From: Eledone cirrhosa
Lineage: Eukaryota
DNA: 64,000 bases
Assembly: GCA_964016885.1 (NCBI GenBank)
Contig: OZ024740.1
Coordinates: forward strand, 6,882,001-6,946,000
Direction of reading: 5' to 3'
Part shown: positions 1 to 64,000 of the stretch, piece after piece
How the letters are laid out: every line of letters begins with the position of its first letter
Position numbering within the stretch: position 1 is the stretch's first letter
Made by a program: the position numbers and the translations under genes
Notes under the pieces: model-generated
What the model saw: the letters and a program-made list of their open reading frames with translations, nothing else
What the model was told of the DNA's origin: nothing
Databases searched by the model: none

Positions 1-3000
1 AAAATACGCAGATCCTAAGGCAGTATTTGTGAGAGACATTACCCCCAAAATGCTCAGATCCTAAGGCAGTGTTTGTGAGAGACATTACCCCAAAATACTC
101 AGATCCTAAGGCAGTGTTTGTGAGAGACATTACCCCAAAATACTCAGATCCTAAGGCAGTGTTTGTGAGATACATTACCCCAAAATACTCAGATTCTAAG
201 GCAGTGTTTGTGAGACTATTACCCCAAAATACTCAGATACTAAGTCAGTTTTTGTGAGAGATATTACCCCAAAATACTCAGATCATAAGGCAGTGTTTGT
301 GAGATACATTACCGCAAAATACTCAGATCGTAAGGCAGTGTTTGTGAGAGATATTACCCCAAAATACTCAGATCCTAAGGCATCGTTTGTGAGAGACATT
401 ACCCCAAAATACTCAGATCCTAAGGCTGTATTTGTGAGAGACATTACCCCAGAATACTCAGATCCTAAGGCAGTAATTGTGAGAGACATTACACCAAAAT
501 ACTCAGATCCTAAGGCTGTATTTGTGAGAGACATTACCCCAAAATACTCAGATCCTAAGGCAGTATTTGTGAGAGACATTACCCCAAAATACTAAGATCC
601 TAAGGCAGTATTTGTGAGAGACATTACCTTAAAATACTCAGATCCTAAGGCTGTATTTGTGAGAGACATTACCCCAAAATACTCAGATCCTAAGGCAGTA
701 TTTTGAGAGACATTACCCCAAAATACTCAGACCCTAAGGCAGTATTTATGAGAGACATTACCCCAAAATACTGAGATCCTAAGGCAGTGTTTGTGAGAGA
801 CATTACCCCCAACATACTCAGATCCTAAGGCTGTATTTGTGAGAGACATTACCCCAAAATACTCAGATCCTAAGGCTGTATTTGTGAGAGACAATAACCA
901 AAAATACTCAGATCCTAAAGCAGTATTTGTGAGAGACATTACCCCAAAATACTCAGATCCTAAGGCTGTATTTGTGAGAGACAATAACCAAAAATACTCA
1001 GATCCTAAGGCAGTATTTGTGAGAGACATTACCCCAAAATACTCAGATACTAAGGCAGTATTTGTGAGAGACATTACGCCAAAATACTGAGCTCCTAAGG
1101 CTGTGTTTGTGAGAGACATTACCCCAAAATACTGAGATCCTAAGGCTGAGTTTGTTAGAGACATTACCCCAAAATACTGAGATCCTAAGGCAGTATTTGT
1201 GAGAGACATTACCCCAAAATACTCAGATCCTAAGGCAGTGTTTGTGAGAGACATTACGCCAAAATACTCAGATCCTAAGGCTGTGTTTGTGACAGACATT
1301 ACCCCAATATACTCAGATCCTAAGATAGTGTTTGTGAGAGACATTACCCCAAAATACTCAGATCCTAAGGCTGTATTTGTGAGAGGCATTACCCCAAAAT
1401 ACTGAGATTCTAAGGCTGTATTTTTGAGAGACATTACCCCAAAATACTCAGATCCTAAGGTAGTGTTTGTGAGAGACATTATCCCAAAATACTCAGATCC
1501 TCAGGCTGTATTTGTGGGAGACATTACCCCAAAATACTCAGATCCTAAGGTAGTGTTTGTGAGAGACATTATCCCAAAATACTCAGATCCTAAGGCTGTA
1601 TTTGTGCGAGACATTACCCAAAAATACTCAGATCCTAAGGCAGTATTTGTGAGAGACATTACGCCAAAATACTCAGATCCCAAGGCAGTGTTTGTGAGAG
1701 ACATTACCCCAAAATACTCAGATCCTAAGGCTGTGTTTGTGAGAGATATTACCCCAAAATACTCAGATCCTAAGGCAGTGTTTGTGAGAGACATTACACC
1801 AAAATACTCAGATCCTAAGGCTGTATTTGTGAGAGACAATACCCCAAAATACTCAGATCCTAAGGCTGTATTTGTGAGAGACAATACCCCAAAATACTCA
1901 GATCCTAAGGCAGTATTTGTGAGAGACAATAACCCAAAATACTCAGATCCTAAGGTAGTATTTGGGAGAGACATTACCCCCAAAATACTCAGATCCTAAG
2001 GCTGTACTTGTGAGAGACATTACCCCAAAATACTCAGATCCTAAGGCAGTGTTTGTGAGGGACATTACCCAAAAATACTCAGATCCTAAGGCAGTATTTG
2101 TGAGAGACATTACCCCAAAATACTCAGATCCCAAGGCAGTGTTTGTGAGAGACATTACCCCAAAATACTCAGATCCTAAGGCTGTGTTTGTGAGAGATAT
2201 TACCCCAAACTACTCAGATCCTAAGGCAGTGTTTGTGAGAGACATTACACCAAAATACTCAGATCCTAAGGCAGTGTTTGGAGAGATATTACCCCAAAAT
2301 ACTCAGATCCTAAGGCAGTGTTTGTGACAGACATTACCCCAAAATACACAGATACTAAGGCAGTATTTGTGAGAGACATTACCCCAAAATACTCAGATCC
2401 TAAGGCAGTGTTTGTGAGGGACATTACCCCCAAATACTCAGATCCTAAGGCAGTATTTGTGAGAGACATTACCCCAAAATACTCAGATCCCAAGGCAGTG
2501 TTTGTGAGAGACATTACCCCAAAATACTCAGATCCTAAGGCAGTGTTTGTGAGAGACATTACACCAAAATACTCAGATCCTAAGGCAGTTTTTGTGAGAG
2601 ATATTACCCCAAAATACTCAGATCCTAAGGCAGTGTTTGTGAGAGATATTACCCCCGAAATACTCAGATCCTAAGGCAGTGTTTGTGAGAGATATTACCC
2701 CAAAATCCTCAGATCCTAAGGCAGTATTTGTGAGAGACATTACCCCAAAATATTCAGATCCTAAGGCTGTATTTGTGAGAGACATTACCCCAAAATACTG
2801 AGTTCCTAAGGCAGTATTTGTGAGAGACATTACCCCAAAATACTCAGATCCTCAGGCTGTATTTGTGAGAGACATTACCCCAAAATACTCAGATTCTAAG
2901 GCTGTATTTTTGAGAGACATTACCCCAAAATACTCAGATCCTCAGGCTGTATTTGTGTGAGACATCACCCCAAAATACTCAGATCCTAAGGTAGTGTTTG

Positions 3001-3286
3001 TGAGAGACATTATCCCAAAATACTCAGATTCTAAGGCTGTATTTTTGAGAGACATTACCCCAAAATACTCAGATCCTCAGGCTGTATTTGTGGGAGACAT
3101 CACCCCAAAATACTCAGATTCTAAGGTAGTGTTTGTGAGAGACATTATCCCAAAATACTCAGATCCTAAGGCTGTATTTTTGAGAGACATTACCCCAAAA
3201 TACTCAGATCGTAAGGCTGTATTTTTGAGAGACATTAACCCAAAATTCTCAGATCCTAAGGCAGTGTTTGTGAGAGACATTACCCC
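1..3286. repeat. HOR-A copy 1 (3,286 bp = 73 monomers +1 nt)
   Basis: Matching ORF patterns recur at a constant +3286 offset (69/3355, 727/4013, 1424/4710, 1962/5248, 2318/5604). The diagnostic variants TACGCAG, GAGACTATT, TAAGTCAGTTTT, GAGCTC and CCCCCAACAT occur in the same order. Confidence 0.93.
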
Positions 3287-6200
3287 AAAATACGCAGATC
3301 CTAAGGCAGTATTTGTGAGAGACATTACCCCCAAAATGGTCAGATCCTAAGGCAGTGTTTGTGAGAGACATTACCCCAAAATACTCAGATCCTAAGGCAG
3401 TGTTTGTGAGAGACATTACCCCAAAATACTCAGATCCTAAGGCAGTGTTTGTGAGATACATTACCCCAAAATACTCAGATTCTAAGGCAGTGTTTGTGAG
3501 ACTATTACCCCAAAATACTCAGATACTAAGTCAGTTTTTGTGAGAGATATTACCCCAAAATACTCAGATCCTAAGGCAGTGTTTGTGAGATACATTACCG
3601 CAAAATACTCAGATCGTAAGGCAGTGTTTGTGAGAGATATTACCCCAAAATACTCAGATCCTAAGGCATCGTTTGTGAGAGACATTACCCCAAAATACTC
3701 AGATCCTAAGGCTGTATTTGTGAGAGACATTACCCCAGAATACTCAGATCCTAAGGCAGTAATTGTGAGAGACATTACACCAAAATACTCAGATCCTAAG
3801 GCTGTATTTGTGAGAGACATTACCCCAAAATACTCAGATCCTAAGGCAGTATTTGTGAGAGACATTACCCCAAAATACTAAGATCCTAAGGCAGTATTTG
3901 TGAGAGACATTACCCCAAAATACTCAGATCCTAAGGCTGTATTTGTGAGAGACATTACCCCAAAATACTCAGATCCTAAGGCAGTATTTTGAGAGACATT
4001 ACCCCAAAATACTCAGACCCTAAGGCAGTATTTATGAGAGACATTACCCCAAAATACTGAGATCCTAAGGCAGTGTTTGTGAGAGACATTACCCCCAACA
4101 TACTCAGATCCTAAGGCTGTATTTGTGAGAGACATTACCCCAAAATACTCAGATCCTAAGGCTGTATTTGTGAGAGACAATAACCAAAAATACTCAGATC
4201 CTAAAGCAGTATTTGTGAGAGACATTACCCCAAAATACTCAGATCCTAAGGCTGTATTTGTGAGAGACAATAACCAAAAATACTCAGATCCTAAGGCAGT
4301 ATTTGTGAGAGACATTACCCCAAAATACTCAGATACTAAGGCAGTATTTGTGAGAGACATTACGCCAAAATACTGAGCTCCTAAGGCTGTGTTTGTGAGA
4401 GACATTACCCCAAAATACTGAGATCCTAAGGCTGAGTTTGTTAGAGACATTAGCCCAAAATACTGAGATCCTAAGGCAGTATTTGTGAGAGACATTACCC
4501 CAAAATACTCAGATCCTAAGGCAGTGTTTGTGAGAGACATTACGCCAAAATACTCAGATCCTAAGGCTGTGTTTGTGACAGACATTACCCCAATATACTC
4601 AGATCCTAAGAGAGTGTTTGTGAGAGACATTACCCCAAAATACTCAGATCCTAAGGCTGTATTTGTGAGAGGCATTACCCCAAAATACTGAGATTCTAAG
4701 GCTGTATTTTTGAGAGACATTACCCCAAAATACTCAGATCCTAAGGTAGTGTTTGTGAGAGACATTATCCCAAAATACTCAGATCCTCAGGCTGTATTTG
4801 TGGGAGACATTACCCCAAAATACTCAGATCCTAAGGTAGTGTTTGTGAGAGACATTATCCCAAAATACTCAGATCCTAAGGCTGTATTTGTGCGAGACAT
4901 TACCCAAAAATACTCAGATCCTAAGGCAGTATTTGTGAGAGACATTACGCCAAAATACTCAGATCCCAAGGCAGTGTTTGTGAGAGACATTACCCCAAAA
5001 TACTCAGATCCTAAGGCTGTGTTTGTGAGAGATATTACCCCAAAATACTCAGATCCTAAGGCAGTGTTTGTGAGAGACATTACACCAAAATACTCAGATC
5101 CTAAGGCTGTATTTGTGAGAGACAATACCCCAAAATACTCAGATCCTAAGGCTGTATTTGTGAGAGACAATACCCCAAAATACTCAGATCCTAAGGCAGT
5201 ATTTGTGAGAGACAATAACCCAAAATACTCAGATCCTAAGGTAGTATTTGGGAGAGACATTACCCCCAAAATACTCAGATCCTAAGGCTGTACTTGTGAG
5301 AGACATTACCCCAAAATACTCAGATCCTAAGGCAGTGTTTGTGAGGGACATTACCCAAAAATACTCAGATCCTAAGGCAGTATTTGTGAGAGACATTACC
5401 CCAAAATACTCAGATCCCAAGGCAGTGTTTGTGAGAGACATTACCCCAAAATACTCAGATCCTAAGGCTGTGTTTGTGAGAGATATTACACCAAACTACT
5501 CAGATCCTAAGGCAGTGTTTGTGAGAGACATTACACCAAAATACTCAGATCCTAAGGCAGTGTTTGGAGAGATATTACCCCAAAATACTCAGATCCTAAG
5601 GCAGTGTTTGTGACAGACATTACCCCAAAATACACAGATACTAAGGCAGTATTTGTGAGAGACATTACCCCAAAATACTCAGATCCTAAGGCAGTGTTTG
5701 TGAGGGACATTACCCCCAAATACTCAGATCCTAAGGCAGTATTTGTGAGAGACATTACCCCAAAATACTCAGATCCCAAGGCAGTGTTTGTGAGAGACAT
5801 TACCCCAAAATACTCAGATCCTAAGGCTGTGTTTGTGAGAGATATTACCCCAAAATACTCAGATCCTAAGGCAGTGTTTGTGAGAGACATTACACCAAAA
5901 TACTCAGATCCTAAGGCAGTTTTTGTGAGAGATATTACCCCAAAATACTCAGATCCTAAGGCAGTGTTTGTGAGAGATATTACCCCCGAAATACTCAGAT
6001 CCTAAGGCAGTGTTTGTGAGAGATATTACCCCAAAATACTCAGATCCTAAGGCAGTATTTGTGAGAGACATTACCCCAAAATATTCAGATCCTAAGGCTG
6101 TATTTGTGAGAGACATTACCCCAAAATACTGAGTTCCTAAGGCAGTATTTGTGAGAGACATTACCCCAAAATACTCAGATCCTCAGGCTGTATTTGTGAG

Positions 6201-6617
6201 AGACATTACCCCAAAATACTCAGATTCTAAGGCTGTATTTTTGAGAGACATTACCCCAAAATACTCAGATCCTCAGGCTGTATTTGTGTGAGACATCACC
6301 CCAAAATACTCAGATCCTAAGGTCGTGTTTGTGAGAGACATTATCCCAAAATACTCAGATTCTAAGGCTGTATTTTTGAGAGACATTACCCCAAAATACT
6401 CAGATCCTCAGGCTGTATTTGTGAGAGACATCACCCCAAAATACTCAGATCCTAAGGTAGTGTTTGTGAGAGACATTATCCCAAAATACTCAGATCCTAA
6501 GGCTGTATTTGTGAGAGACATTACCCCAAAATACTCAGATCGTAAGGCTGTATTTTTGAGAGACATTAACCCAAAATTCTCAGATCCTAAGGCAGTGTTT
6601 GTGAGAGACATTACCCC
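3287..6617. repeat. HOR-A copy 2 (3,331 bp = 74 monomers +1 nt)
   Basis: Same variant order as copy 1, with one extra monomer near 5820-5865 (ORF 5604..6005 is 15 aa longer than 2318..2674; the offset becomes 3331 at 2994/6325). Confidence 0.92.
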
Positions 6618-8608
6618 AAAATACTCAGATCCTAAGGCAGTATTTGTGAGAGACATTACCCCCAAAATGCTCAGATCCTAAGGCAGTGTTTGTGAGAGAC
6701 ATTACCCCAAAATACTCAGATCCTAAGGCAGTGTTTGTGAGAGACATTACCCCCAAAATACTCAGATCCTAAGGCAGTGTTTGTGAGAGACATTACCCCA
6801 AAATACTCAGATACTAAGGCAGTATTTGTGAGAGACATTACGCCAAAATACTGAGCTCCTAAGGCTGTGTTTGTGAGAGACATTACCCCAAAATACTGAG
6901 ATCCTAAGGCTGAGTTTGTTAGAGACATTACCCCAAAATACTGAGATCCTAAGGCAGTATTTGTGAGAGACATTACCCCAAAATACTCAGATCCTAAGGC
7001 AGTGTTTGTGAGAGACATTACGCCAAAATACTCAGATCCTAAGGCTGTGTTTGTGACAGACATTACCCCAATATACTCAGATCCTAAGAGAGTGTTTGTG
7101 AGAGACATTACCCCAAAATACTCAGATCCTAAGGCTGTATTTGTGAGAGGCATTACCCCAAAATACTGAGATTCTAAGGCTGTATTTTTGAGAGACATTA
7201 CCCCAAAATACTCAGATCCTAAGGTAGTGTTTGTGAGAGACATTATCCCAAAATACTCAGATCCTCAGGCTGTATTTGTGGGAGACATTACCCCAAAATA
7301 CTCAGATCCTAAGGTAGTGTTTGTGAGAGACATTATCCCAAAATACTCAGATCCTAAGGCTGTATTTGTGCGAGACATTACCCCAAAATACTCAGATCCT
7401 AAGGCAGTATTTGTGAGAGACATTACGCCAAAATACTCAGATCCCAAGGCAGTGTTTGTGAGAGACATTACCCCAAAATACTCAGATCCTAAGGCTGTGT
7501 TTGTGAGAGATATTACCCCAAAATACTCAGATCCTAAGGCAGTGTTTGTGAGAGACATTACACCAAAATACTCAGATCCTAAGGCTGTATTTGTGAGAGA
7601 CAATACCCCAAAATACTCAGATCCTAAGGCTGTATTTGTGAGAGACAATACCCCAAAATACTCAGATCCTAAGGCAGTATTTGTGAGAGACAATAACCCA
7701 AAATACTCAGATCCTAAGGTAGTATTTGGGAGAGACATTACCCCCAAAATACTCAGATCCTAAGGCTGTACTTGTGAGAGACATTACCCCAAAATACTCA
7801 GATCCTAAGGCAGTGTTTGTGAGGGACATTACCCAAAAATACTCAGATCCTAAGGCAGTATTTGTGAGAGACATTACCCCAAAATACTCAGATCCCAAGG
7901 CAGTGTTTGTGAGAGACATTACCCCAAAATACTCAGATCCTAAGGCTGTGTTTGTGAGAGATATTACCCCAAACTACTCAGATCCTAAGGCAGTGTTTGT
8001 GAGAGACATTACACCAAAATACTCAGATCCTAAGGCAGTGTTTGGAGAGATATTACCCCAAAATACTCAGATCCTAAGGCAGTGTTTGTGACAGACATTA
8101 CCCCAAAATACACAGATACTAAGGCAGTATTTGTGAGAGACATTACCCCAAAATACTCAGATCCTAAGGCAGTGTTTGTGAGGGACATTACCCCCAAATA
8201 CTCAGATCCTAAGGCAGTATTTGTGAGAGACATTACCCCAAAATACTCAGATCCCAAGGCAGTGTTTGTGAGAGACATTACCCCAAAATACTCAGATCCT
8301 AAGGCTGTGTTTGTGAGAGATATTACCCCAAAATACTCAGATCCTAAGGCAGTGTTTGTGAGAGACATTACACCAAAATACTCAGATCCTAAGGCAGTTT
8401 TTGTGAGAGATATTACCCCAAAATACTCAGATCCTAAGGCAGTGTTTGTGAGAGATATTACCCCCGAAATACTCAGATCCTAAGGCAGTGTTTGTGAGAG
8501 ATATTACCCCAAAATACTCAGATCCTAAGGCAGTATTTGTGAGAGACATTACCCCAAAATATTCAGATCCTAAGGCTGTATTTGTGAGAGACATTACCCC
8601 AAAATACT
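6618..8608. repeat. HOR-A copy 3, internally deleted (about 19 monomers, 853 bp) and truncated
   Basis: The offset to copy 2 drops from 3331 to 2478 (4485/6963, 4710/7188, 5248/7726, 5604/8082). Similarity in variant order ends near 8608. Confidence 0.88.
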
Positions 8609-11600
8609 CAGATCCTAAGGCAGTGTTTGTGAGAGACATTACCCCAAAATACTGAGATCCTAAGGCTGTATTTGTGAGAGACATTACCCCCCAAAATACT
8701 GAGATCCTAAGGCTGTATTTGTGAGAGACATTACCCCAAAATACTCAGATCCTAAGGCTGTATTTGTGAGAGACATTACACCAAAATACTCAGATCCTAA
8801 GGCTGTATTTATGAGAAACATTACCCCAAAATACTCAGATTCTAAGGCACTGTTTGTGAGAGACATTACCCCAAAATACTCAAATCCTAAGGAAGAATTT
8901 GTCAGAGACATTACCCCGAAATACTCAGATCCTAAGGCAGTATTTGTGAGCGACATTACCCCAAAATACTCAGATTCTAAGGCTGTATTTGTGAGAGACA
9001 TTACCCCAAAATACTCAGATCCTAAGGCAGTATTTGTGAGAGACATTACCCCAAAATACTAGGATCCTAAGGCAGTATTTGTGAGAGACATTACCCCAAA
9101 ATACTGAGATCTTAAGGCTGTATTTGTGAGAGACATTACCCCAAAATACTGAGACCCTAAGGCAGTATTTGTGAGATACATTACCCCAAAATACTCAGAT
9201 CCTAAGGCAGTATTTGTGAGAGACATTACCCCAAAATACTGAGATACTAAGGCAGTATTTGTGAGAGACATTAGCCCAAAATACTCAGATCCTAAGGCTG
9301 TAATTGTGAGAGACATGACCCCAAAATACTGAGATCCTAAGGCTGTATTTGTGAGAGACATTACCCCAAAATACGCAGATCCTAAGGCAGTATTTGTGAG
9401 AAACATTACACCAAAATACTCAGATCCTAAGGCAGTATTTATGAGAGACATTACCCCAAAATACTCAGATCCTAAGGCAGTATTTGTGAGAGACATTACC
9501 CCAAAATACTCAGATCCTAAGACAGTATTTGTGAGAGACATTACCCCAAAATACTCAGATCCTAAGGCAGTGTTTGTGAGAGACATTACATCAAAATACT
9601 CAGATCCTAAGGCTGTATTTGTGAGAGACATTACCCCAAAATACTGAGATTCTAAGGCTGTATTTATGAGAGACATTACCCCAAAATACTCAGATCCTAA
9701 GGCTGTATTTGTGAGAGACATTACACCAAAATACTCAGATCCTAAGGCTGTATTTATGAGAGACATTACCCCCAAAATACTCAGATTGTAAGGCAGTGTT
9801 TGTGAGAGACATTACCCCAAAATACTGAGATCCTAAGGCTGTATTTGTGAGAGACATTACCCCAAAATACTCAGATCCAAAGGCAGTATTTGTGAGAGAC
9901 ATTAGCCCAAAATACTCAGATCCTAAGGCTGTGTTTGTGAGAGACATTACCCCAAAATACTCAGATCCTAAGACTGGATTTGTGAGAGACATTATCCCAA
10001 AATACTGAGATTCTAAGGCTGTATTTGTGAGCGACATTACCCCAAAATACTCAGATCCTAAGGCAGTGTTTGTGAGAGACATTACCCCAAAATACTCAGA
10101 TCCTCAGGCTGTATTTGTGGGAGACATTACCCCAAAATACTCAGATCCTAAGGTAGTGTTTGTGAGAGACATTATCCCAAAATACTCAGATCCTAAGGCT
10201 GTATTTGTGAGAGACATTACCCCAAAATACTCAGATCCTAAGGCAGTATTTGTGAGAGACATTACCCCAAAATACTCAGATCCTAAGGCTGTATTTGTGA
10301 GAGACATTACCCCAAAATACTGAGATCCTAAGGCAGTGTTTGTGAGAGACATTACGCCAAAATACTCAGATCCTAAGGCTGTATTTGTGAGCGACATTAC
10401 CCCAAAATACTCAGATCCTAAGGCTGTATTTGTGAGAGACAATACCCCAAAATACTCAGATCCTAAGGCTGTATTTGTGAGAGACAATACCCCAAAATAC
10501 TCAGATCCTAAGGCAGTATTTGGGAGAGACATTACCCCCAAAATACTCAGATCCTAAGGCTGTATTTGTGAGAGACATTCCCCCAAAATACTGAGACCCT
10601 AAGGCAGTATTTGTAAGATACATTACCCCAAAATACTCAGATCCTAAGGCAGTATTTGTGAGAGACATTAGCCCAAAATACTCAGATCCTAAGGCAGTAT
10701 TTGTGAGAGACATTACCCCAAAATACTCAGATCCTAAGGCTGTATTTGTGAGAGACATTACCCCAAAATACTGAGATTCTAAGGCTGTATTTTTGAGAGA
10801 CATTACCCCAAAATACTCAGATCCTCAGGCTGTATTTGTGGGAGACATTACCCCAAAATACTCAGATCCTAAGGTAGTGTTTGTGAGAGACATTATCCCA
10901 AAATACTCAGATCCTAAGGCTGTATTTGTGAGAGACATTACCCCAAAATACTCAGATCCTAAGGCAGTATTTGTGAGAGACATTACCCCAAAATACTCAG
11001 ATCCTCAGGCTGTATTTGTGGGAGACATTACCCCAAAATACTCAGATCCTAAGGTAGTGTTTGTGAGAGACATTATCCCAAAATACTCAGATCCTAAGGC
11101 TGTATTTGTGAAAACATTACCCCAAAATACTGAGATTCTAAGGCTGTATTTTTGAGAGACATTACCCCAAAATACTCAGATCCTCAGGCTGTATTTGTGG
11201 GAGACATTACCCCAAAATACTCAGATCCTAAGGTAGTGTTTGTGAGAGACATTATCCCAAAATACACAGATCCTAAGGCTGTATTTGTGAGAGACATTAC
11301 CCCAAAATACTCAGATCCTAAGGCAGTATTTGTGAGAGACATTACCCCAAAATACTCAGATCCTAAGGCTGTATTTGTGAGAGACATTACCCCAAAATAC
11401 TGAGATCCTAAGGCAGTGTTTGTGAGAGACATTACGCCAAAATACTCAGATCCTAAGGCTGTATTTGTGAGCGACATTACCCCAAAATACTCAGATCCTA
11501 AGGCTGTATTTGTGAGAGACAATACCCCAAAATACTCAGATCCTAAGGCTGTATTTGTGAGAGACAATACCCCAAAATACTCAGATCCTAAGGCAGTATT

Positions 11601-14600
11601 TGTGAGAGACAATAACCCAAAATACTCAGATCCTAAGGCAGTATTTGGGAGAGACATTACCCCCAAAATACTCAGATCCTAAGGCAGTGTTTGTGAAAGA
11701 CATTACCGCAAAATACTCAGATCCTAAGGCATCGTTTGTGAGAGATATTACCCGAAAATACTCAGATCCTAAGGCAGTGTTTGTAAGAGACATTACCCCC
11801 AAAATATTCAGATCCTAAGGCAGTGTTTGTCCGAGATATTACCCCAAAATACTCAGATCCTAAGGCTGTATTTGTGAGAGACATTACCCCAAAAACTCAG
11901 ATCCTAAGGCAGTATTTGTGAGAGACATGACCCCAAAATACTCAGATTCTCAGGCTCTATTTGTGACAGACATTACCCCCAAAATACTCAAATCCTAAGG
12001 AAGAATTAGTGAGAGACATTACCCCGAAATACTCAGATCCTAAGGCAGTATTTGTGAGCGACATTACCCCAAAATACTCAGATTCTAAGGCTGTATTTGT
12101 GAGAGACATTACCCCAAAATACTCAGATCCTAAGGCAGTATTTGTGAGAGACATTACCCCAAAATACTGAGATCCTAAGGCAGTATTTGTGAGAGACATT
12201 ACCCCAAAATACTGAGATCCTAAGGCTGTATTTGTGAGAGACATTACCCCAAAATACTGAGACCCTAAAGCAGTATTTGTGAGATACATTACCCCAAAAT
12301 ACTCAGATCCTAAGGTAGTGTTTGTGAGAGACATTATCCCAAAATACTCAGATCCTAAGGCTGTATTTGTGAGAGACTTACCCCAAAATACTCAGATCCT
12401 AAGGCAGTATTTGTGAGAGACATTACCCCAAAATACTCAGATCCTCAGGCTGTATTTGTGGGAGACATTACCCCAAAATACTCAGATCCTAAGGTAGTGT
12501 TTGTGAGAGACATTATCCCAAAATACTCAGATCCTAAGGCTGTATTTGTGAGAGACATTAGCCCAAAATACTCAGATACTAAGGCTGTGTTTGTGAGAGA
12601 CATTACCCCAAAATACTCAGATCCTAAGGCTGTATTTGTGAGAGACATTACCCCAAAATACTGAGATCCTAAGGCAGTGTTTGTGAGAGACATTACGCCA
12701 AAATACTCAGATCCTAAGGCTGTATTTGTGAGCGACATTACCCCAAAATACTCAGATCCTAAGGCTGTATTTGTGAGAGACATTACCCCAAAATACTGAG
12801 ATCCTAAGGCAGTGTTTGTGAGAGACATTACGCCAAAATACTCAGATCCTAAGGCTGTATTTGTGAGCGACATTACCCCAAAATACTCAGATCCTAAGGC
12901 TGTATTTGTGAGAGACAATACCCCAAAATACTCAGATCCTAAGGCTGTATTTGTGAGAGACAATACCCCAAAATACTCAGATCCTAAGGCAGTATTTGTG
13001 AGAGACAATAACCCAAAATACTCAGATCCTAAGGCAGTATTTGGGAGAGACATTACCCCCAAAATACTCAGATCCTAAGGCTGTATTTGTGAGAGACATT
13101 CCCCCAAAATACTGAGACCCTAAGGCAGTATTTGTGAGATACATTACCCCAAAATACTCAGATCCTAAGGCAGTATTTGTGAGAGACATTACCCCAAAAT
13201 ACACAGATCCTAAGGCAGTATTTGTGAGAGACATTACACCAAAATACTCAGATTCTAAGGCAGTGTTTGTGAGAGACATTACCCCAAAATACTGAGATCC
13301 TAAGGCTGTATTTGTCAGAGACATTACCCCAAAATACTCAGATCCAAAGGCAGTATTTGTGAGAGACATTAGCCCAAAATACTCAGATACTAAGGCTGTG
13401 TTTGTGAGAGACATTACCCCAAAATACTCAGATCCTAAGGCAGTATTTGTGAGAGACATTACCCCAAAATACTCAGATCCTAAGGCTGTATTTTTGAGAG
13501 ACATTACCCCAAAATACTGAGATCCTAAGGCTGTATTTGTCAGAGACATTACCCCAAAATACTCAGATCCTAAGGCTGTGTTTGTGAGAGACATTACCCC
13601 AAAATACTCAGATCCTAAGGCTGTATTTGTGAGAGACATTACCCCAAAATACTGAGATTCTAAGGCTGTATTTTTGAGAGACATTACCCCAAAATACTCA
13701 GATCCTCAGGCTGTATTTGTGGGAGACATTACCCCAAAATACTCAGATCCTAAGGTAGTGTTTGTGAGAGACATTATCCCAAAATACTCAGATCCTAAGG
13801 CTGTATTTGTGAAAACATTACCCCAAAATACTGAGATTCTAAGGCTGTATTTGTGAGAGACATTACCCCAAAATACTCAGATCCTAAGGCAGTATTTGTG
13901 AGAGACATTACCCCAAAATACTCAGATCCTCAGGCTGTATTTGTGGGAGACATTACCCCAAAATACTCAGATCCTAAGGTAGTGTTTGTGAGAGACATTA
14001 TCCCAAAATACTCAGATCCTAAGGCTGTATTTGTGAAAACATTACCCCAAAATACTGAGATTCTAAGGCTGTATTTTTGAGAGACATTACCCCAAAATAC
14101 TCAGATCCTCAGGCTGTATTTGTGGGAGACATTACCCCAAAATACTCAGATCCTAAGGTAGTGTTTGTGAGAGACATTATCCCAAAATACACAGATCCTA
14201 AGGCTGTATTTGTGAGAGACATTACCCCAAAATACTCAGATCCTAAGGCAGTATTTGTGAGAGACATTACCCCAAAATACTCAGATCCTAAGGCAGTATT
14301 TGTGAGAGACATTACCCCAAAATACTCAGATCCTAAGGCTGTATTTGTGAGATACATTACCCCAAAATACTGAGATTCTAAGGCTGTATTTTTGAGAGAC
14401 ATTACCCCAAAATACTCAGATCCTCAGGCTGTATTTGTGGGAGACATTACCACAAAATACTCAGATCCTAAGGTAGTGTTTGTGAGAGACATTATCCCAA
14501 AATACTCAGATCCTAAGGCTGTATTTGTGAGAGACATTACCCCAAAATACTCAGATCCTAAGGCTGTATTTGTGAAAACATTACCCCAAAATACTGAGAT

Positions 14601-52000: not shown

Positions 52001-52550
52001 TGAGATCCTAAGGCAGTATTTGTGAGAGACATTACCCCAAAATACTCAGATCCTAAGGCAGTGTTTGTGAGAGACATTACGCCAAAATACTCAGATCCTA
52101 AAGGCTGTGTTTGTGACAGACATTACCCCAATATACTCAGATCCTAAGAGAGTGTTTGTGAGAGACATTACCCCAAAATACTCAGATCCTAAGGCTGTAT
52201 TTGTGAGAGACATTACCCCAAAATACTGAGATTCTAAGGCTGTATTTTTGAGAGACATTACCCCAAAATACTCAGATCCTCAGGCTGTATTTGTAGGAGA
52301 CATTACCCCAAAATACTCAGATCCTAAGGTAGTGTTTGTGAGAGACATTATCCCAAAATACTCAGATCCTAAGGCTGTATTTGTGAGACACATTACCCCA
52401 AAATACTCAGATCCTAAGGCAGTATTTGTGAGAGACATTACCCCAAAATACTCAGATCCTAAGGCTGTATTTGTGAGAGACATTACCCCAAAATACTGAG
52501 ATCCTAAGGCAGTGTTTGTGAGAGACATTACGCCAAAATACTCAGATCCT
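46100..52550. repeat. Duplication with 3,791-bp offset (about 46100-48760 repeated at about 49890-52550)
   Basis: ORF pairs 46217/50008, 46722/50513, 47398/51189, 47804/51595 and 48457/52248 are all offset by 3791. Shared CCTAAAGG insertion, GAGAAATT, TGTAGGAG and GAGACACATT variants. Confidence 0.92.
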
Positions 52551-55500
52551 AAGGCTGTATTTGTGAGCGACATTACCCCCAAAATACTCAGATCCTAAGG
52601 CAGTATTTGTGAGAGACAATACCCCAAAATACTCAGATCCTAAGGCAGTATTTGGGAGAGACATTACCCCCAAAATACTCAGATCCTAAGGCTGTATTTG
52701 TGAGAGACAATACCCCAAAATACTCAGATCCTAAGGCTGTATTTGTGAGAGACAATACCCCAAAATACTCAGATCCTAAGGCAGTATTTGTGAGAGACAA
52801 TAACCCAAAATACTCAGATCCTAAGGCAGTATTTGGGAGAGACATTACCCCCAAAATACTCAGATCCTAAGGCTGTATTTGTGAGAGACAATAACCAAAA
52901 ATACTCAGATCCTAAGGCAGTATTTGTGAGAGACATTACCCCAAAATACTGAGATCCTAAGGCTGTATTTGTGAGAGACATTACCCCAAAATACTCAGAT
53001 CCTAAGGCAGTATTTGTGAGAGACATTACGCCAAAATACTGAGCTCCTAAGGCTGTGTTTGTGAGAGACATTACCCCAAAATACTGAGATCCTAAGGCTG
53101 AGTTTGTTAGAGACATTACCCCAAAATACTGAGATCCTAAGGCAGTATTTGTGAGAGACATTACCCCAAAATACTCAGATCCTAAGGCAGTGTTTGTGAG
53201 AGACATTACGCCAAAATACTCAGATCCTAAGGCTGTGTTTGTGACAGACATTACCCCAATATACTCAGATCCTAAGAGAGTGTTTGTGAGAGACATTACC
53301 CCAAAATACTCAGATCCTAAGGCAGTATTTGTGAGAGACATTACCCCAAAATACTGAGATCCTAAGGCAGTATTAGTGAGAGACATTACCCCAAAATACT
53401 CAGATCCTAAGGCTGTATTTGTGAGAGACATTACCCCAAAATACTCAGATCCTAAGGCTGTATTTGTGAGAGACATTACCCCAGAATACTCAGATCCTAA
53501 GGCAGTAATTGTGAGAGACATTACACCAAAATACTCAGATCCTAAGGCTGTATTTGTGAGAGACATTACCCCAAAATACTCAGATCCTAAGGCAGTATTT
53601 GTGAGAGACATTACCCCAAAATACTAAGATCCTAAGGCAGTATTTGTGAGAGACATTACCCCAAAATACTCAGATCCTAAGGCTGTATTTGTGAGAGACA
53701 TTACCCCAAAATACTCAGATACTAAGGCAGTATTTGTGAGAGACATTACCCCAAAATACTCAGACCCTAAGGCAGTATTTGTGAGAGACATTACCCCAAA
53801 ATACTGAGATCCTAAGGCAGTGTTTGTGAGAGACATTACCCCCAACATACTCAGATCCTAAGGCTGTATTTGTGAGAGACATTACCCCAAAATACTCAGA
53901 TCCTAAGGCTGTATTTGTGAGAGACAATAACCAAAAATACTCAGATCCTAAAGCAGTATTTGTGAGAGACATTACCCCAAAATACTCAGATCCTAAGGCT
54001 GTATTTGTGAGAGACAATAACCAAAAATACTCAGATCCTAAGGCAGTATTTGTGAGAGACATTACCCCAAAATACTCAGATCCTAAGGCAGTTTTTGTGA
54101 GAGACATTACGCCAAAATACTGAGCTCCTAAGGCTGTGTTTGTGAGAGACATTACCCCAAAATACTGAGATCCTAAGGCTGAGTTTGTTAGAGACATTAC
54201 CCCAAAATACTGTGATCCTAAGGCAGTATTTGTGAGAGACATTACCCCAAAATACTCAGATCCTAAGGCAGTGTTTGTGAGAGACATTACGCCAAAATAC
54301 TCAGATCCTAAGGCTGTGTTTGTGACAGACATTACCCCAATATATTCAGATCCTAAGAGAGTGTTTGTGAGAGACATTACCCCAAAATACTCAGATCCTA
54401 AGGCTGTATTTGTGAGAGACATTACCCCAAAATACTGAGATTCTAAGGCTGTATTTTTGAGAGACATTACCCCAAAATACTCAGATCCTAAGGTAGTGTT
54501 TGTGAGAGACATTATCCCAAAATACTCAGATCCTCAGGCTGTATTTGTGGGAGACATTACCCCAAAATACTCAGATCCTAAGGTAGTGTTTGTGAGAGAC
54601 ATTATCCCAAAATACTCAGATCCTAAGGCTATATTTGTGCGAGACATTACCCCAAAATACTCAGATCCTAAGGCAGTATTTGTGAGAGACATTACCCCAA
54701 AATACTCAGATCCTAAGGCTGTATTTGTGAGAGACATTACCCCAAAATACTGAGATCCTAAGGCAGTGTTTGTGAGAGACATTACGCCAAAATACTCAGA
54801 TCCTAAGGCTGTACTTGTGAGAGACATTACCCCAAAATACTCAGATCCTAAGGCAGTGTTTGTGAGGGACATTACCCAAAAATACTCAGATCCTAAGGCA
54901 GTATTTGTGAGAGACATTACCCCAAAATACTCAGATCCCAAGGCAGTGTTTGTGAGAGACATTACCCCAAAATACTCAGATCCTAAGGCTGTGTTTGTGA
55001 GAGATATTACCCCAAAATACTCAGATCCTAAGGCAGTGTTTGTGAGAGACATTACACCAAAATACTCAGATCCTAAGGCAGTGTTTGTGAGAGATATTAC
55101 CCCAAAATACTCAGATCCTAAGGCAGTGTTTGTGACAGACATTACCCCAAAATACACAGATACTAAGGCAGTATTTGTGAGAGACATTACCCCAAAATAC
55201 TCAGATCAGATCCTAAGGCAGTATTTGTGAGGGACATTACCCCAAAATACTCAGATCCTAAGGCAGTATTTGTGAGAGACATTACCCCAAAATACTCAGA
55301 TCCCAAGGCAGTGTTTGTGAGAGACATTACCCCAAAATACTCAGATCCTAAGGCTGTGTTTGTGAGAGATATTACCCCAAAATACTCAGATCCTAAGGCA
55401 GTGTTTGTGAGAGACATTACACCAAAATACTCAGATCCTAAGGCAGTTTTTGTGAGAGATATTACCCCAAAATACTCAGATCCTAAGGCAGTGTTTGTGA

Positions 55501-56260
55501 GAGATATTACCCCCGAAATACTCAGATCCTAAGGCAGTGTTTGTGAGAGATATTACCCCAAAATCCTCAGATCCTAAGGCAGTATTTGTGAGAGACATTA
55601 CCCCAAAATATTCAGATCCTAAGGCTGTATTTGTGAGAGACATTACCCCAAAATACTGAGTTCCTAAGGCAGTATTTGTGAGAGACATTACCCCAAAATA
55701 CTCAGATCCTCAGGCTGTATTTGTGAGAGACATTACCCCAAAATACTCAGATTCTAAGGCTGTATTTTTGAGAGACATTACCCCAAAATACTCAGATCCT
55801 CAGGCTGTATTTGTGTGAGACATCACCCCAAAATACTCAGATCCTAAGGTAGTGTTTGTGAGAGACATTATCCCAAAATACTCAGATTTTAAGGCTGTAT
55901 TTTTGAGAGACATTACCCCAAAATACTCAGATCCTCAGGCTGTATTTGTGGGAGACATCACCCCAAAATACTCAGATTCTAAGGTAGTGTTTGTGAGAGA
56001 CATTATCCCAAAATACTCAGATCCTAAGGCTGTATTTTTGAGAGACATTACCCCAAAATACTCAGATCGTAAGGCTGTATTTTTGAGAGACATTAACCCA
56101 AAATTCTCAGATCCTAAGGCAGTGTTTGTGAGAGACATTACCCCAAAATACGCAGATCCTAAGGCAGTATTTGTGAGAGACATTACCCCCAAAATGCTCA
56201 GATCCTAAGGCAGTGTTTGTGAGAGACATTACCCCAAAATACTCAGATCCTAAGGCAGTG
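48750..56260. repeat. Duplicated block with 6,360-bp offset (about 48750-49900 repeated at about 55110-56260)
   Basis: ORF pairs 48827/55187, 48867/55227, 49116/55476 and 49492/55852 are offset by 6360. Both copies carry the 5-nt duplication TCAGATCAGATCC. Confidence 0.9.
53400..56144. repeat. Diverged HOR-A-like copy preceding the second HOR-A cluster
   Basis: ORFs 53760..54512, 53872, 54232 and 54457 mirror 56871..57623, 56983, 57343 and 57568 at offset 3111. This copy lacks the CAATAC/TTTGGG monomer block. Confidence 0.8.
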
Positions 56261-59200
56261 TTTGTGAGAGACATTACCCCAAAATACTCAGATCCTAAGG
56301 CAGTGTTTGTGAGATACATTACCCCAAAATACTCAGATTCTAAGGCAGTGTTTGTGAGACTATTACCCCAAAATACTCAGATACTAAGTCAGTTTTTGTG
56401 AGAGATATTACCCCAAAATACTCAGATCCTAAGGCAGTGTTTGTGAGATACATTACCGCAAAATACTCAGATCGTAAGGCAGTGTTTGTGAGAGATATTA
56501 CCCCAAAATACTCAGATCCTAAGGCATCGTTTGTGAGAGACATTACCCCAAAATACTCAGATCCTAAGGCTGTATTTGTGAGAGACATTACCCCAGAATA
56601 CTCAGATCCTAAGGCAGTAATTGTGAGAGACATTACACCAAAATACTCAGATCCTAAGGCTGTATTTGTGAGAGACATTACCCCAAAATACTCAGATCCT
56701 AAGGCAGTATTTGTGAGAGACATTACCCCAAAATACTAAGATCCTAAGGCAGTATTTGTGAGAGACATTACCCCAAAATACTCAGATCCTAAGGCTGTAT
56801 TTGTGAGAGACATTACCCCAAAATACTCAGATCCTAAGGCAGTATTTTGAGAGACATTACCCCAAAATACTCAGACCCTAAGGCAGTATTTATGAGAGAC
56901 ATTACCCCAAAATACTGAGATCCTAAGGCAGTGTTTGTGAGAGACATTACCCCCAACATACTCAGATCCTAAGGCTGTATTTGTGAGAGACATTACCCCA
57001 AAATACTCAGATCCTAAGGCTGTATTTGTGAGAGACAATAACCAAAAATACTCAGATCCTAAAGCAGTATTTGTGAGAGACATTACCCCAAAATACTCAG
57101 ATCCTAAGGCTGTATTTGTGAGAGACAATAACCAAAAATACTCAGATCCTAAGGCAGTATTTGTGAGAGACATTACCCCAAAATACTCAGATACTAAGGC
57201 AGTATTTGTGAGAGACATTACGCCAAAATACTGAGCTCCTAAGGCTGTGTTTGTGAGAGACATTACCCCAAAATACTGAGATCCTAAGGCTGAGTTTGTT
57301 AGAGACATTACCCCAAAATACTGAGATCCTAAGGCAGTATTTGTGAGAGACATTACCCCAAAATACTCAGATCCTAAGGCAGTGTTTGTGAGAGACATTA
57401 CGCCAAAATACTCAGATCCTAAGGCTGTGTTTGTGACAGACATTACCCCAATATACTCAGATCCTAAGAGAGTGTTTGTGAGAGACATTACCCCAAAATA
57501 CTCAGATCCTAAGGCTGTATTTGTGAGAGGCATTACCCCAAAATACTGAGATTCTAAGGCTGTATTTTTGAGAGACATTACCCCAAAATACTCAGATCCT
57601 AAGGTAGTGTTTGTGAGAGACATTATCCCAAAATACTCAGATCCTCAGGCTGTATTTGTGGGAGACATTACCCCAAAATACTCAGATCCTAAGGTAGTGT
57701 TTGTGAGAGACATTATCCCAAAATACTCAGATCCTAAGGCTGTATTTGTGCGAGACATTACCCAAAAATACTCAGATCCTAAGGCAGTATTTGTGAGAGA
57801 CATTACGCCAAAATACTCAGATCCCAAGGCAGTGTTTGTGAGAGACATTACCCCAAAATACTCAGATCCTAAGGCTGTGTTTGTGAGAGATATTACCCCA
57901 AAATACTCAGATCCTAAGGCAGTGTTTGTGAGAGACATTACACCAAAATACTCAGATCCTAAGGCTGTATTTGTGAGAGACAATACCCCAAAATACTCAG
58001 ATCCTAAGGCTGTATTTGTGAGAGACAATACCCCAAAATACTCAGATCCTAAGGCAGTATTTGTGAGAGACAATAACCCAAAATACTCAGATCCTAAGGT
58101 AGTATTTGGGAGAGACATTACCCCCAAAATACTCAGATCCTAAGGCTGTACTTGTGAGAGACATTACCCCAAAATACTCATATCCTAAGGCAGTGTTTGT
58201 GAGGGACATTACCCAAAAATACTCAGATCCTAAGGCAGTATTTGTGAGAGACATTACCCCAAAATACTCAGATCCCAAGGCAGTGTTTGTGAGAGACATT
58301 ACCCCAAAATACTCAGATCCTAAGGCTGTGTTTGTGAGAGATATTACCCCAAACTACTCAGATCCTAAGGCAGTGTTTGTGAGAGACATTACACCAAAAT
58401 ACTCAGATCCTAAGGCAGTGTTTGGAGAGATATTACCCCAAAATACTCAGATCCTAAGGCAGTGTTTGTGACAGACATTACCCCAAAATACACAGATACT
58501 AAGGCAGTATTTGTGAGAGACATTACCCCAAAATACTCAGATCCTAAGGCAGTGTTTGTGAGGGACATTACCCCCAAATACTCAGATCCTAAGGCAGTAT
58601 TTGTGAGAGACATTACCCCAAAATACTCAGATCCCAAGGCAGTGTTTGTGAGAGACATTACCCCAAAATACTCAGATCCTAAGGCTGTGTTTGTGAGAGA
58701 TATTACCCCAAAATACTCAGATCCTAAGGCAGTGTTTGTGAGAGACATTACACCAAAATACTCAGATCCTAAGGCAGTTTTTGTGAGAGATATTACCCCA
58801 AAATACTCAGATCCTAAGGCAGTGTTTGTGAGAGATATTACCCCCGAAATACTCAGATCCTAAGGCAGTGTTTGTGAGAGACATTACCCCAAAATATTCA
58901 GATCCTAAGGCTGTATTTGTGAGAGACATTACCCCAAAATACTGAGTTCCTAAGGCAGTATTTGTGAGAGACATTACCCCAAAATACTCAGATCCTCAGG
59001 CTGTATTTGTGAGAGACATTACCCCAAAATACTCAGATTCTAAGGCTGTATTTTTGAGAGACATTACCCCAAAATACTCAGATCCTCAGGCTGTATTTGT
59101 GTGAGACATCACCCCAAAATACTCAGATCCTAAGGTAGTGTTTGTGAGAGACATTATCCCAAAATACTCAGATTCTAAGGCTGTATTTTTGAGAGACATT

Positions 59201-62200
59201 ACCCCAAAATACTCAGATCCTCAGGCTGTATTTGTGGGAGACATCACCCCAAAATACTCAGATTCTAAGGTAGTGTTTGTGAGAGACATTATCCCAAAAT
59301 ACTCAGATCCTAAGGCTGTATTTTTGAGAGACATTACCCCAAAATACTCAGATCGTAAGGCTGTATTTTTGAGAGACATTAACCCAAAATTCTCAGATCC
59401 TAAGGCAGTGTTTGTGAGAGACATTACCCCAAAATACGCAGATCCTAAGGCAGTATTTGTGAGAGACATTACCCCCAAAATGGTCAGATCCTAAGGCAGT
59501 GTTTGTGAGAGACATTACCCCAAAATACTCAGATCCTAAGGCAGTGTTTGTGAGAGACATTACCCCAAAATACTCAGATCCTAAGGCAGTGTTTGTGAGA
59601 TACATTACCCCAAAATACTCAGATTCTAAGGCAGTGTTTGTGAGACTATTACCCCAAAATACTCAGATACTAAGTCAGTTTTTGTGAGAGATATTACCCC
59701 AAAATACTCAGATCCTAAGGCAGTGTTTGTGAGATACATTACCGCAAAATACTCAGATCGTAAGGCAGTGTTTGTGAGAGATATTACCCCAAAATACTCA
59801 GATCCTAAGGCATCGTTTGTGAGAGACATTACCCCAAAATACTCAGATCCTAAGGCTGTATTTGTGAGAGACATTACCCCAGAATACTCAGATCCTAAGG
59901 CAGTAATTGTGAGAGACATTACACCAAAATACTCAGATCCTAAGGCTGTATTTGTGAGAGACATTACCCCAAAATACTCAGATCCTAAGGCAGTATTTGT
60001 GAGAGACATTACCCCAAAATACTAAGATCCTAAGGCAGTATTTGTGAGAGACATTACCCCAAAATACTCAGATCCTAAGGCTGTATTTGTGAGAGACATT
60101 ACCCCAAAATACTCAGATCCTAAGGCAGTATTTTGAGAGACATTACCCCAAAATACTCAGACCCTAAGGCAGTATTTATGAGAGACATTACCCCAAAATA
60201 CTGAGATCCTAAGGCAGTGTTTGTGAGAGACATTACCCCCAACATACTCAGATCCTAAGGCTGTATTTGTGAGAGACATTACCCCAAAATACTCAGATCC
60301 TAAGGCTGTATTTGTGAGAGACAATAACCAAAAATACTCAGATCCTAAAGCAGTATTTGTGAGAGACATTACCCCAAAATACTCAGATCCTAAGGCTGTA
60401 TTTGTGAGAGACAATAACCAAAAATACTCAGATCCTAAGGCAGTATTTGTGAGAGACATTACCCCAAAATACTCAGATACTAAGGCAGTATTTGTGAGAG
60501 ACATTACGCCAAAATACTGAGCTCCTAAGGCTGTGTTTGTGAGAGACATTACCCCAAAATACTGAGATCCTAAGGCTGAGTTTGTTAGAGACATTAGCCC
60601 AAAATACTGAGATCCTAAGGCAGTATTTGTGAGAGACATTACCCCAAAATACTCAGATCCTAAGGCAGTGTTTGTGAGAGACATTACGCCAAAATACTCA
60701 GATCCTAAGGCTGTGTTTGTGACAGACATTACCCCAATATACTCAGATCCTAAGAGAGTGTTTGTGAGAGACATTACCCCAAAATACTCAGATCCTAAGG
60801 CTGTATTTGTGAGAGGCATTACCCCAAAATACTGAGATTCTAAGGCTGTATTTTTGAGAGACATTACCCCAAAATACTCAGATCCTAAGGTAGTGTTTGT
60901 GAGAGACATTATCCCAAAATACTCAGATCCTCAGGCTGTATTTGTGGGAGACATTACCCCAAAATACTCAGATCCTAAGGTAGTGTTTGTGAGAGACATT
61001 ATCCCAAAATACTCAGATCCTAAGGCTGTATTTGTGCGAGACATTACCCAAAAATACTCAGATCCTAAGGCAGTATTTGTGAGAGACATTACGCCAAAAT
61101 ACTCAGATCCCAAGGCAGTGTTTGTGAGAGACATTACCCCAAAATACTCAGATCCTAAGGCTGTGTTTGTGAGAGATATTACCCCAAAATACTCAGATCC
61201 TAAGGCAGTGTTTGTGAGAGACATTACACCAAAATACTCAGATCCTAAGGCTGTATTTGTGAGAGACAATACCCCAAAATACTCAGATCCTAAGGCTGTA
61301 TTTGTGAGAGACAATACCCCAAAATACTCAGATCCTAAGGCAGTATTTGTGAGAGACAATAACCCAAAATACTCAGATCCTAAGGTAGTATTTGGGAGAG
61401 ACATTACCCCCAAAATACTCAGATCCTAAGGCTGTACTTGTGAGAGACATTACCCCAAAATACTCAGATCCTAAGGCAGTGTTTGTGAGGGACATTACCC
61501 AAAAATACTCAGATCCTAAGGCAGTATTTGTGAGAGACATTACCCCAAAATACTCAGATCCCAAGGCAGTGTTTGTGAGAGACATTACCCCAAAATACTC
61601 AGATCCTAAGGCTGTGTTTGTGAGAGATATTACCCCAAACTACTCAGATCCTAAGGCAGTGTTTGTGAGAGACATTACACCAAAATACTCAGATCCTAAG
61701 GCAGTGTTTGGAGAGATATTACCCCAAAATACTCAGATCCTAAGGCAGTGTTTGTGACAGACATTACCCCAAAATACACAGATACTAAGGCAGTATTTGT
61801 GAGAGACATTACCCCAAAATACTCAGATCCTAAGGCAGTGTTTGTGAGGGACATTACCCCCAAATACTCAGATCCTAAGGCAGTATTTGTGAGAGACATT
61901 ACCCCAAAATACTCAGATCCCAAGGCAGTGTTTGTGAGAGACATTACCCCAAAATACTCAGATCCTAAGGCTGTGTTTGTGAGAGATATTACCCCAAAAT
62001 ACTCAGATCCTAAGGCAGTGTTTGTGAGAGACATTACACCAAAATACTCAGATCCTAAGGCAGTTTTTGTGAGAGATATTACCCCAAAATACTCAGATCC
62101 TAAGGCAGTGTTTGTGAGAGATATTACCCCCGAAATACTCAGATCCTAAGGCAGTGTTTGTGAGAGATATTACCCCAAAATACTCAGATCCTAAGGCAGT

Positions 62201-64000
62201 ATTTGTGAGAGACATTACCCCAAAATATTCAGATCCTAAGGCTGTATTTGTGAGAGACATTACCCCAAAATACTGAGTTCCTAAGGCAGTATTTGTGAGA
62301 GACATTACCCCAAAATACTCAGATCCTCAGGCTGTATTTGTGAGAGACATTACCCCAAAATACTCAGATTCTAAGGCTGTATTTTTGAGAGACATTACCC
62401 CAAAATACTCAGATCCTCAGGCTGTATTTGTGTGAGACATCACCCCAAAATACTCAGATCCTAAGGTCGTGTTTGTGAGAGACATTATCCCAAAATACTC
62501 AGATTCTAAGGCTGTATTTTTGAGAGACATTACCCCAAAATACTCAGATCCTCAGGCTGTATTTGTGAGAGACATCACCCCAAAATACTCAGATCCTAAG
62601 GTAGTGTTTGTGAGAGACATTATCCCAAAATACTCAGATCCTAAGGCTGTATTTGTGAGAGACATTACCCCAAAATACTCAGATCGTAAGGCTGTATTTT
62701 TGAGAGACATTAACCCAAAATTCTCAGATCCTAAGGCAGTGTTTGTGAGAGACATTACCCCAAAATACTCAGATCCTAAGGCAGTATTTGTGAGAGACAT
62801 TACCCCCAAAATGCTCAGATCCTAAGGCAGTGTTTGTGAGAGACATTACCCCAAAATACTCAGATCCTAAGGCAGTGTTTGTGAGAGACATTACCCCCAA
62901 AATACTCAGATCCTAAGGCAGTGTTTGTGAGAGACATTACCCCAAAATACTCAGATACTAAGGCAGTATTTGTGAGAGACATTACGCCAAAATACTGAGC
63001 TCCTAAGGCTGTGTTTGTGAGAGACATTACCCCAAAATACTGAGATCCTAAGGCTGAGTTTGTTAGAGACATTACCCCAAAATACTGAGATCCTAAGGCA
63101 GTATTTCTGAGAGACATTACCCCAAAATACTCAGATCCTGAGGCAGTGTTTGTGAGAGACATTACGCCAAAATACTCAGATCCTAAGGCTGTGTTTGTGA
63201 CAGACATTACCCCAATATACTCAGATCCTAAGAGAGTGTTTGTGAGAGACATTACCCCAAAATACTCAGATCCTAAGGCTGTATTTGTGAGAGGCATTAC
63301 CCCAAAATACTGAGATTCTAAGGCTGTATTTTTGAGAGACATTACCCCAAAATACTCAGATCCTAAGGTAGTGTTTGTGAGAGACATTATCCCAAAATAC
63401 TCAGATCCTCAGGCTGTATTTGTGGGAGACATTACCCCAAAATACTCAGATCCTAAGGTAGTGTTTGTGAGAGACATTATCCCAAAATACTCAGATCCTA
63501 AGGCTGTATTTGTGCGAGACATTACCCCAAAATACTCAGATCCTAAGGCAGTATTTGTGAGAGACATTACGCCAAAATACTCAGATCCCAAGGCAGTGTT
63601 TGTGAGAGACATTACCCCAAAATACTCAGATCCTAAGGCTGTGTTTGTGAGAGATATTACCCCAAAATACTCAGATCCTAAGGCAGTGTTTGTGAGAGAC
63701 ATTACACCAAAATACTCAGATCCTAAGGCTGTATTTGTGAGAGACAATACCCCAAAATACTCAGATCCTAAGGCTGTATTTGTGAGAGACAATACCCCAA
63801 AATACTCAGATCCTAAGGCAGTATTTGTGAGAGACAATAACCCAAAATACTCAGATCCTAAGGTAGTATTTGGGAGAGACATTACCCCCAAAATACTCAG
63901 ATCCTAAGGCTGTACTTGTGAGAGACATTACCCCAAAATACTCAGATCCTAAGGCAGTGTTTGTGAGGGACATTACCCAAAAATACTCAGATCCTAAGGC
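56145..64000. repeat. Second occurrence of positions 1-7856 (HOR-A copies 1', 2', 3') at offset 56,144 bp
   Basis: ORF pairs 69/56213, 727/56871, 2994/59138, 3355/59499, 6325/62469, 6716/62860 and 7188/63332 are all offset by 56144. Copy-specific variants are preserved (TGGTCAG 3337/59481, ATTAGCCC about 4449/60593, GGTCGTG 6321/62465), as is the copy-3 deletion. Confidence 0.95.

Follow-up and report, generated by a model that had tools for sequence, protein, structure and literature searches.

Evidence for one head-to-tail duplication of 56-58 kb in a 45-bp satellite array of Eledone cirrhosa, with a one-sided cluster of rearrangements suggestive of break-induced replication

By which route, unequal exchange or break-induced replication (BIR), a satellite array can grow by tens of kilobases in one step is an open question (10.1101/2023.11.11.566714; 10.1101/2025.06.02.657473; PMC13011684). 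The question is raised by a 64,000-nucleotide stretch of the Eledone cirrhosa genome, hereafter the window (assembly GCA_964016885.1, contig OZ024740.1, positions 6,882,001 to 6,946,000 of the forward strand). The window, 1..64000, consists entirely of a 45-bp satellite and is part of one larger array, and a sequence-only reading had observed that its bases 1-7856 recur at 56145-64000. From this recurrence that reading proposed amplification of the array in blocks of roughly 56 kb, while leaving open whether a tandem period or a one-off duplication was responsible. Once 200 kb of upstream and 300 kb of downstream flank are added to the window, the sequence itself points to a single tandem event: a 163.6-kb array holding one head-to-tail duplication of 56-58 kb, in exactly two large copies. 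The junction between these copies suggests, with a probability that we put at roughly 60%, that the duplication arose in a single out-of-register BIR event with early template switching, proceeding in the + direction. Coordinates below are those of the window, negative values lying upstream; adding 6,882,000 gives the contig position, and the features mapped within the window lie on the + strand.

Copy A extends from about -49,765 to 8,608 (58,374 bp, 1,296 monomers), its 3′ end being window 1..8608. Copy B occupies 8,722..64,752 (56,031 bp, 1,244 monomers) and ends 752 bases past the window. The reported recurrence is genuine: the best of 62,999 lags tested is 56,144, at which 7,804 of 7,856 bases are identical (99.34%, 52 mismatches). 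This lag equals the length of copy B plus a 113-bp junction insert, which is why it is seen at the 3′ ends. It does not hold as a fixed period, since the 56,144 diagonal spans only about -2,188 to 8,608 (~10.8 kb) and the A/B lag falls from 58,487 to 51,993 over 25 aligned blocks. The expectation that a merely local duplication would show a diagonal ending shortly outside the window was borne out on the right, 752 bases past the edge; on the left, the correspondence continues for ~50 kb more on shifting diagonals. The only BamHI site in copy B (9062..9067) and its counterpart in copy A at -49,380 bound a predicted fragment of 58,442 bp, not of 56,144 bp. Further BamHI sites are present at -108,536, -61,633, and 88,389.

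Are there further copies? In a scan of twenty-monomer windows, with a partner defined as lying >20 kb away with at least 90% identical monomers, no third copy appeared: among the 854 windows upstream of A, and among the 194 that lie downstream of B, not one had such a partner, the best scores being 0.70 and 0.60, respectively. By the same scan, 66% of the 1,276 windows of A have a partner, as do 67% of the 1,223 windows of B. The remaining duplications found in the array are of about 0.8-5.2 kb, and the proposed amplification in ~56-kb units thus finds no support. With two collinear copies of several tens of kilobases in one array, the feature would be classed as a satellite macro-repeat, and not as a higher-order repeat (HOR) or superHOR, because there are two copies only, where at least three in a row define those classes, and no fixed period, the lag ranging over 51,993-58,487. 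It does share with them that its copies are more alike than adjacent monomers (986 of 1,044 aligned monomer pairs identical between A and B, vs. 87.1% identity at lag 45).

The aligned parts of A and B are 99.9% alike. They differ at 52 sites in 44,788 bp, or 1.16 per kb, a count that omits block-edge pairs and ranges over 1.16-1.35 per kb under three settings; at the differing sites, the non-consensus variant lies in A 27 times and in B 29 times. The gaps between them number 27 (25-31 over settings) and merge into 24 monomer-scale rearrangements. Divergence of this extent means that the duplication is not fresh, and the earlier appeal to recent exchange was overstated. A crude age of 9,000-58,000 generations would result from rates per site per generation of 6.5e-8 (Arabidopsis centromeres, 10.1101/2025.06.02.657473) or 1e-8 (assumed), which may not be the rate of this species. 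As for the 52 mismatches at lag 56,144, the seven sites singled out by the sequence-only reading (285, 629-630, 1326, 5490, 58181, 63107, and 63140; eight bases) are all real, and the other 44, at 2542-2726, had been missed. The latter arise because one monomer is absent from A near 2,520 and a different one is absent from B near 58,890.

One clue to the origin of the duplication is the junction insert, 113 bp at 8609..8721, which keeps the monomer phase. The 194 bp from 8,565 to 8,758 are identical to -24,514..-24,321, a site inside copy A 33 kb back, and the copy-B counterpart of that site, 31583..31776, carries the identical 194 bp. This match is composed of 44 bp of the A end, the 113-bp insert, and 37 bp of the B start. 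The 113-bp core is found 15 times elsewhere, all in -32 to -10 kb or 23 to 42 kb, and none of these 15 lies near either duplication breakpoint. Likewise, the monomer type of the insert is present at 20 of 3,631 places, the remaining 19 being all mid-A or mid-B. A direct A-B join would need six differences across three monomers, and random neighbors placed around the same middle monomer regenerated the 194-bp string in 2 of 20,000 draws. Together, the exact match and the rarity of its regeneration argue that the insert was copied from a third site. The 44- and 37-bp overlaps provide the short identity at each switch that characterizes templated inserts of BIR and microhomology-mediated BIR (MMBIR). 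The insert could have arisen in the duplication event itself or have been placed over the junction later.

Another clue is the uneven placement of the 24 rearrangements. Twelve of them fall in the junction-proximal zone of B, 8722..16480 (7,778 of 56,030 bp; binomial p 2.7e-5), most being B-derived. A 10-kb window taken from the literature gives a similar picture: starting at the junction side of B, it takes in 13 of the 24 (p 6.4e-5). The polarity of each event was judged from other copies of the same local pattern. Automated scoring assigned 10 events to B and 2 to A in the first 7.8 kb, and 1 to B and 8 to A beyond it, with 3 ties (Fisher p 0.002). Scoring by eye, in which neighboring events were merged and two compound events split, placed 9 events in B and 2 in A within the first 10 kb; farther on, 6 were derived in B, 7 in A, and 1 was unresolved. 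The by-eye excess at the start of B holds, 9 events comparing with an expectation of 1.4 for each 10 kb of a copy (Poisson p 2e-5). Some of the changes in B remove a single monomer, with a hybrid monomer at the site, and others are mosaic patches taken from monomers close by. The same stretch in copy A shows one or two changes, so the sequence is not inherently unstable. Nor do point differences rise in the zone (0.79 per kb vs. 1.0-1.3 elsewhere). The placement agrees with BIR and MMBIR, which confine their switches to the first 10 kb of new synthesis: of the 24 events, 13 lie there, 10 of them B-derived by automated scoring (p 0.10 for the weaker by-eye contrast).

Among the three mechanisms named by the sequence-only reading, BIR fits these observations best, and unequal exchange and rolling-circle amplification less well. 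Template switching by BIR in yeast takes place in the first 10 kb, with processive copying thereafter (PMC2621351, PMC3039667, citing Smith 2007); in Arabidopsis, mosaic “complex tandem duplications” of satellites have been ascribed to BIR (10.1101/2025.06.02.657473); and size changes of human arrays depend on RAD52 and PIF1 (10.1101/2023.11.11.566714). By analogy, a replication fork would have broken near 8,608, and the broken end would have invaded the sister chromatid out of register, ~33 kb back. After copying 113 bases there, it would have switched to about -49,765 through 37-44 bp of monomer identity, and then slipped or re-invaded some ten more times over the following 8 kb. The remaining 48 kb would have been copied processively in the + direction, and A and B would afterwards have gained point changes, small duplications, and deletions at similar rates. 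It is a more tentative thought, for which the odds fall somewhat short of even, that monomer variants have served as barcodes preserving a whole natural BIR tract: two junction switches, about ten slips or switches in 8 kb, and 48 kb of processive synthesis.

Several considerations weigh against this account. The 7.8-kb boundary was set after the data had been seen, the polarity contrast judged by eye is weaker (Fisher p 0.10), and some of the third-party copies from which polarity was read are not independent evidence for the copy that they favor, as for the event at 29,186. Smaller duplications in the array are clean copies, with 1 mismatch in 5,078 bp, 1 in 4,267, and 2 in 2,613, and so is a 10.3-kb duplication in a neighboring 46-bp array (0 in 9,354 bp), which means that an unstable start is not general here. 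No excess of point mutations of the kind that BIR may leave is seen in B (27 in A vs. 29 in B), though later mutation may mask one. Finally, the account is built on one assembled sequence from one haplotype, and it presupposes that the 10-kb rule, which comes from yeast, applies to this animal as well.

Unequal crossing over between sisters or homologues at a 56-58-kb offset would equally yield two tandem copies in monomer phase. In that case the junction patch, which swaps three monomers for three, could be a conversion tract, and the changes at the start of B would have come later at an unstable spot. Past the initial 10 kb, A and B carry balanced numbers of derived changes, and unequal crossover is the favored source of megabase similarity blocks in maize knobs (PMC13011684). 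What such an exchange does not predict is clustering on one side and in one copy: the last 10 kb of A carries about two changes. Had a diverged allele supplied the start of B, point differences should have risen as well, and they did not. This origin is consequently considered unlikely. Alternatively, a 56-kb circle could have been cut out of the array and put back beside its place of origin, or could have undergone a single round of rolling-circle replication. Re-insertion of a circle yields a head-to-tail pair with one new junction, as is seen. However, only two copies are present and no concatemer, and the one-sided cluster beside the junction is left unexplained, making this route very improbable.

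Might the duplication instead lie in the assembly? On this hypothesis, A and B are two alleles of one 107-kb array, joined through an aberrant or chimeric read that supplied both the junction and the scrambled 8 kb. Differences of ~1.2 per kb and several kilobase-scale indels are compatible with alleles, and part of one long read can be about as big as the scrambled zone. No feature was found that demands A and B on one molecule, and the assembly offers no second copy of the array for comparison. On the other hand, the array is free of N gaps, the 200-N stretches lying at 111,002 and 329,350 instead. The overlaps used by long-read assemblers far exceed 37-44 bp, which is all that the A end and the B start share with the insert. 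Moreover, the changes at the start of B are whole-monomer and templated, not scattered single-base errors, and an artefact is thus regarded as improbable. Least credible, and close to negligible, is growth of the array by a super-repeat that has a fixed length of 56,144 bp and more than two copies. In its favor, identity along the 56,144 diagonal is 99.3% where the two ends of the window match, and two copies could seed three through later unequal exchange in other individuals. For this assembly it is refuted by the missing third copy in 163.6 kb, by the drifting lag, and by an identity at lag 56,144 of 0.26-0.47 in bins starting at 9-15 kb.

The smaller duplications place the BIR event proposed here within a nested history. 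A three-copy 3.3-kb unit, whose third copy lacks 853 bp, had been described at both ends of the window and is present in both large copies (lags 3,331 and 2,478), within 1..8608 in A and at 55371..64000 in B. Its layout is identical in the two, so the unit predates the large duplication. Confined to copy B are a 4,325-bp tandem duplication at 21820..30411 (1 mismatch in 4,267 bp) and a 3,791-bp complex duplication at 46107..52555, in which 2,658 bp are repeated around a ~1.1-kb patch matching 55,102-56,267, that is, 6.4 kb downstream; templated patches are therefore not confined to the main junction. Consistent with a nested history, the one-copy-only duplications (mismatches 0 in 1,604, 1 in 4,267, 2 in 2,613, and 3 in 2,658 bp) are mostly less diverged than the shared 3.3-kb unit (7 in 3,315 bp and 4 in 3,297 bp). 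Elsewhere in the array, a 5,171-bp tandem duplication at -84,192 to -73,944 (1 mismatch in 5,078 bp) encloses an older 1,663-bp duplication. No duplication near 56-58 kb was detected in four adjacent arrays tested. The largest there, of 10.3 kb, is a tandem duplication at about 301,962-322,640 in the 46-bp array at 185,987-323,231, with 0 mismatches in 9,354 bp followed by a one-monomer shift, and is either very young or an assembly duplicate.

The array as a whole spans -89,138 to 74,435 (contig 6,792,862-6,956,435; 163,574 bp, 3,631 monomers), is bounded on both sides, keeps to a single strand, and contains no N. It is the sole locus of its satellite: all 312 exact 44-mer matches in the 3.0-Gb genome fall inside it, as do all 2,892 matches of a 30-mer search at up to two mismatches, at which stringency the genome holds no further locus. 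That the satellite has one locus of 164 kb, lying 6.9 Mb into a 443-Mb contig, argues against a centromeric satellite, a class marked by CENP-A binding and by large or multi-chromosome arrays. The neighbors of the array are unrelated arrays with units of 36, 38, 41, 45, 46, and 49 bp, and over the ~500 kb from -141,479 to 364,000, unrelated arrays with units of 18-49 bp, each 5-164 kb long, form a patchwork (the single-locus test concerns the 45-bp array only). Of the two 200-N stretches, both outside the array, one (329,350-329,549) lies farther downstream; the other (111,002-111,201) separates two different arrays, whose adjacency is thus due to scaffolding, or else sequence was left out there. 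Mobile-element frames surround the array, with a reverse transcriptase match in 8 of 22 scanned frames. The upstream flank is rich in retrotransposon frames combining reverse transcriptase with endonuclease and zinc-finger parts, and also bears two reverse-transcriptase frames with a PHD finger and one GIY-YIG frame. Of eight sequencing runs listed for 8000-9600, five contain part of that stretch, at shares of 0.06-0.18, and no RNA run containing it is listed; these runs were left out of the evidence. An Rfam scan of 8000-10000 returned no match. A coding repeat was considered and rejected: although 45 is a multiple of 3, 302 of the 3,631 monomers are not 45 bp long, and a 414-aa open reading frame in the array has only a below-cutoff Pfam match. 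Also rejected was a monomer hairpin acting as a fork barrier, three 90-base folds giving z-scores of -0.05, -0.65, and 0.71. No function is implied, and the locus most likely reflects neutral turnover of a heterochromatic repeat.

The wider interest of the locus is that a cluster of changes on one side of a junction, and in one copy, separates unequal exchange from BIR by sequence alone. The same polarity test can be applied to any fully assembled array with a large duplication. If the monomer variants do preserve a whole BIR tract, the array would show, at base level and in a wild genome, that the yeast rule of an “unstable first 10 kb” shapes satellite growth. A general test would follow, in which changes to either side of the junction of a large satellite duplication are polarized. 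Large two-copy satellite blocks as such are already known, from human centromere 12 and from maize knobs, and only the junction-side burst is unusual; no paper on such a cluster in a natural satellite duplication was found in the literature surveyed, as judged from listings in a library with few subscription titles, and Fig. S14 of 10.1101/2021.07.12.452052, on macro-repeats, may describe such junctions.

Among known systems, the alpha-satellite macro-repeats of human chromosome 12 are similar in comprising two large copies in one array, later distinguished by small local duplications (10.1101/2021.07.12.452052). That array is an active centromere with regular HORs and is far larger, whereas here a 164-kb single-locus array of a 45-bp unit carries only 0.8-5.2-kb local units, with a junction known at single-base resolution. 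Maize knob180 similarity blocks are likewise large satellite-pattern repeats related by descent; they measure 0.48-1.5 Mb, occur several per knob, have diverged, and are ascribed to unequal crossover (PMC13011684), in contrast to two copies that are 99.9% alike where aligned. The superHORs of HG002 share an order above small higher-order units, but consist of 2-9 HORs at least three times in a row (PMC13477032), compared with two copies here. Closer in mechanism are the complex tandem duplications of Arabidopsis CEN178, which are whole-monomer, phase-keeping mosaics of nearby units with hybrid monomers at their breakpoints, and for which BIR with template switching has been proposed (10.1101/2025.06.02.657473). 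The insertions seen there comprise 1-31 units (mean 1,870 bp), and the events of 59.5 kb and 105 kb are deletions in rtel1 mutants, while the Eledone array gained ~1,246 monomers. Finally, duplications by BIR, MMBIR, and fork stalling and template switching (FoSTeS) display the same short identity at each switch, templated insert, and switches within the first 10 kb (PMC2621351, PMC3039667). Those are known from yeast assays and human disease rearrangements; here, a comparable process would be read from one natural satellite, in which 37-44 bp of exact identity lie within near-identical monomers.

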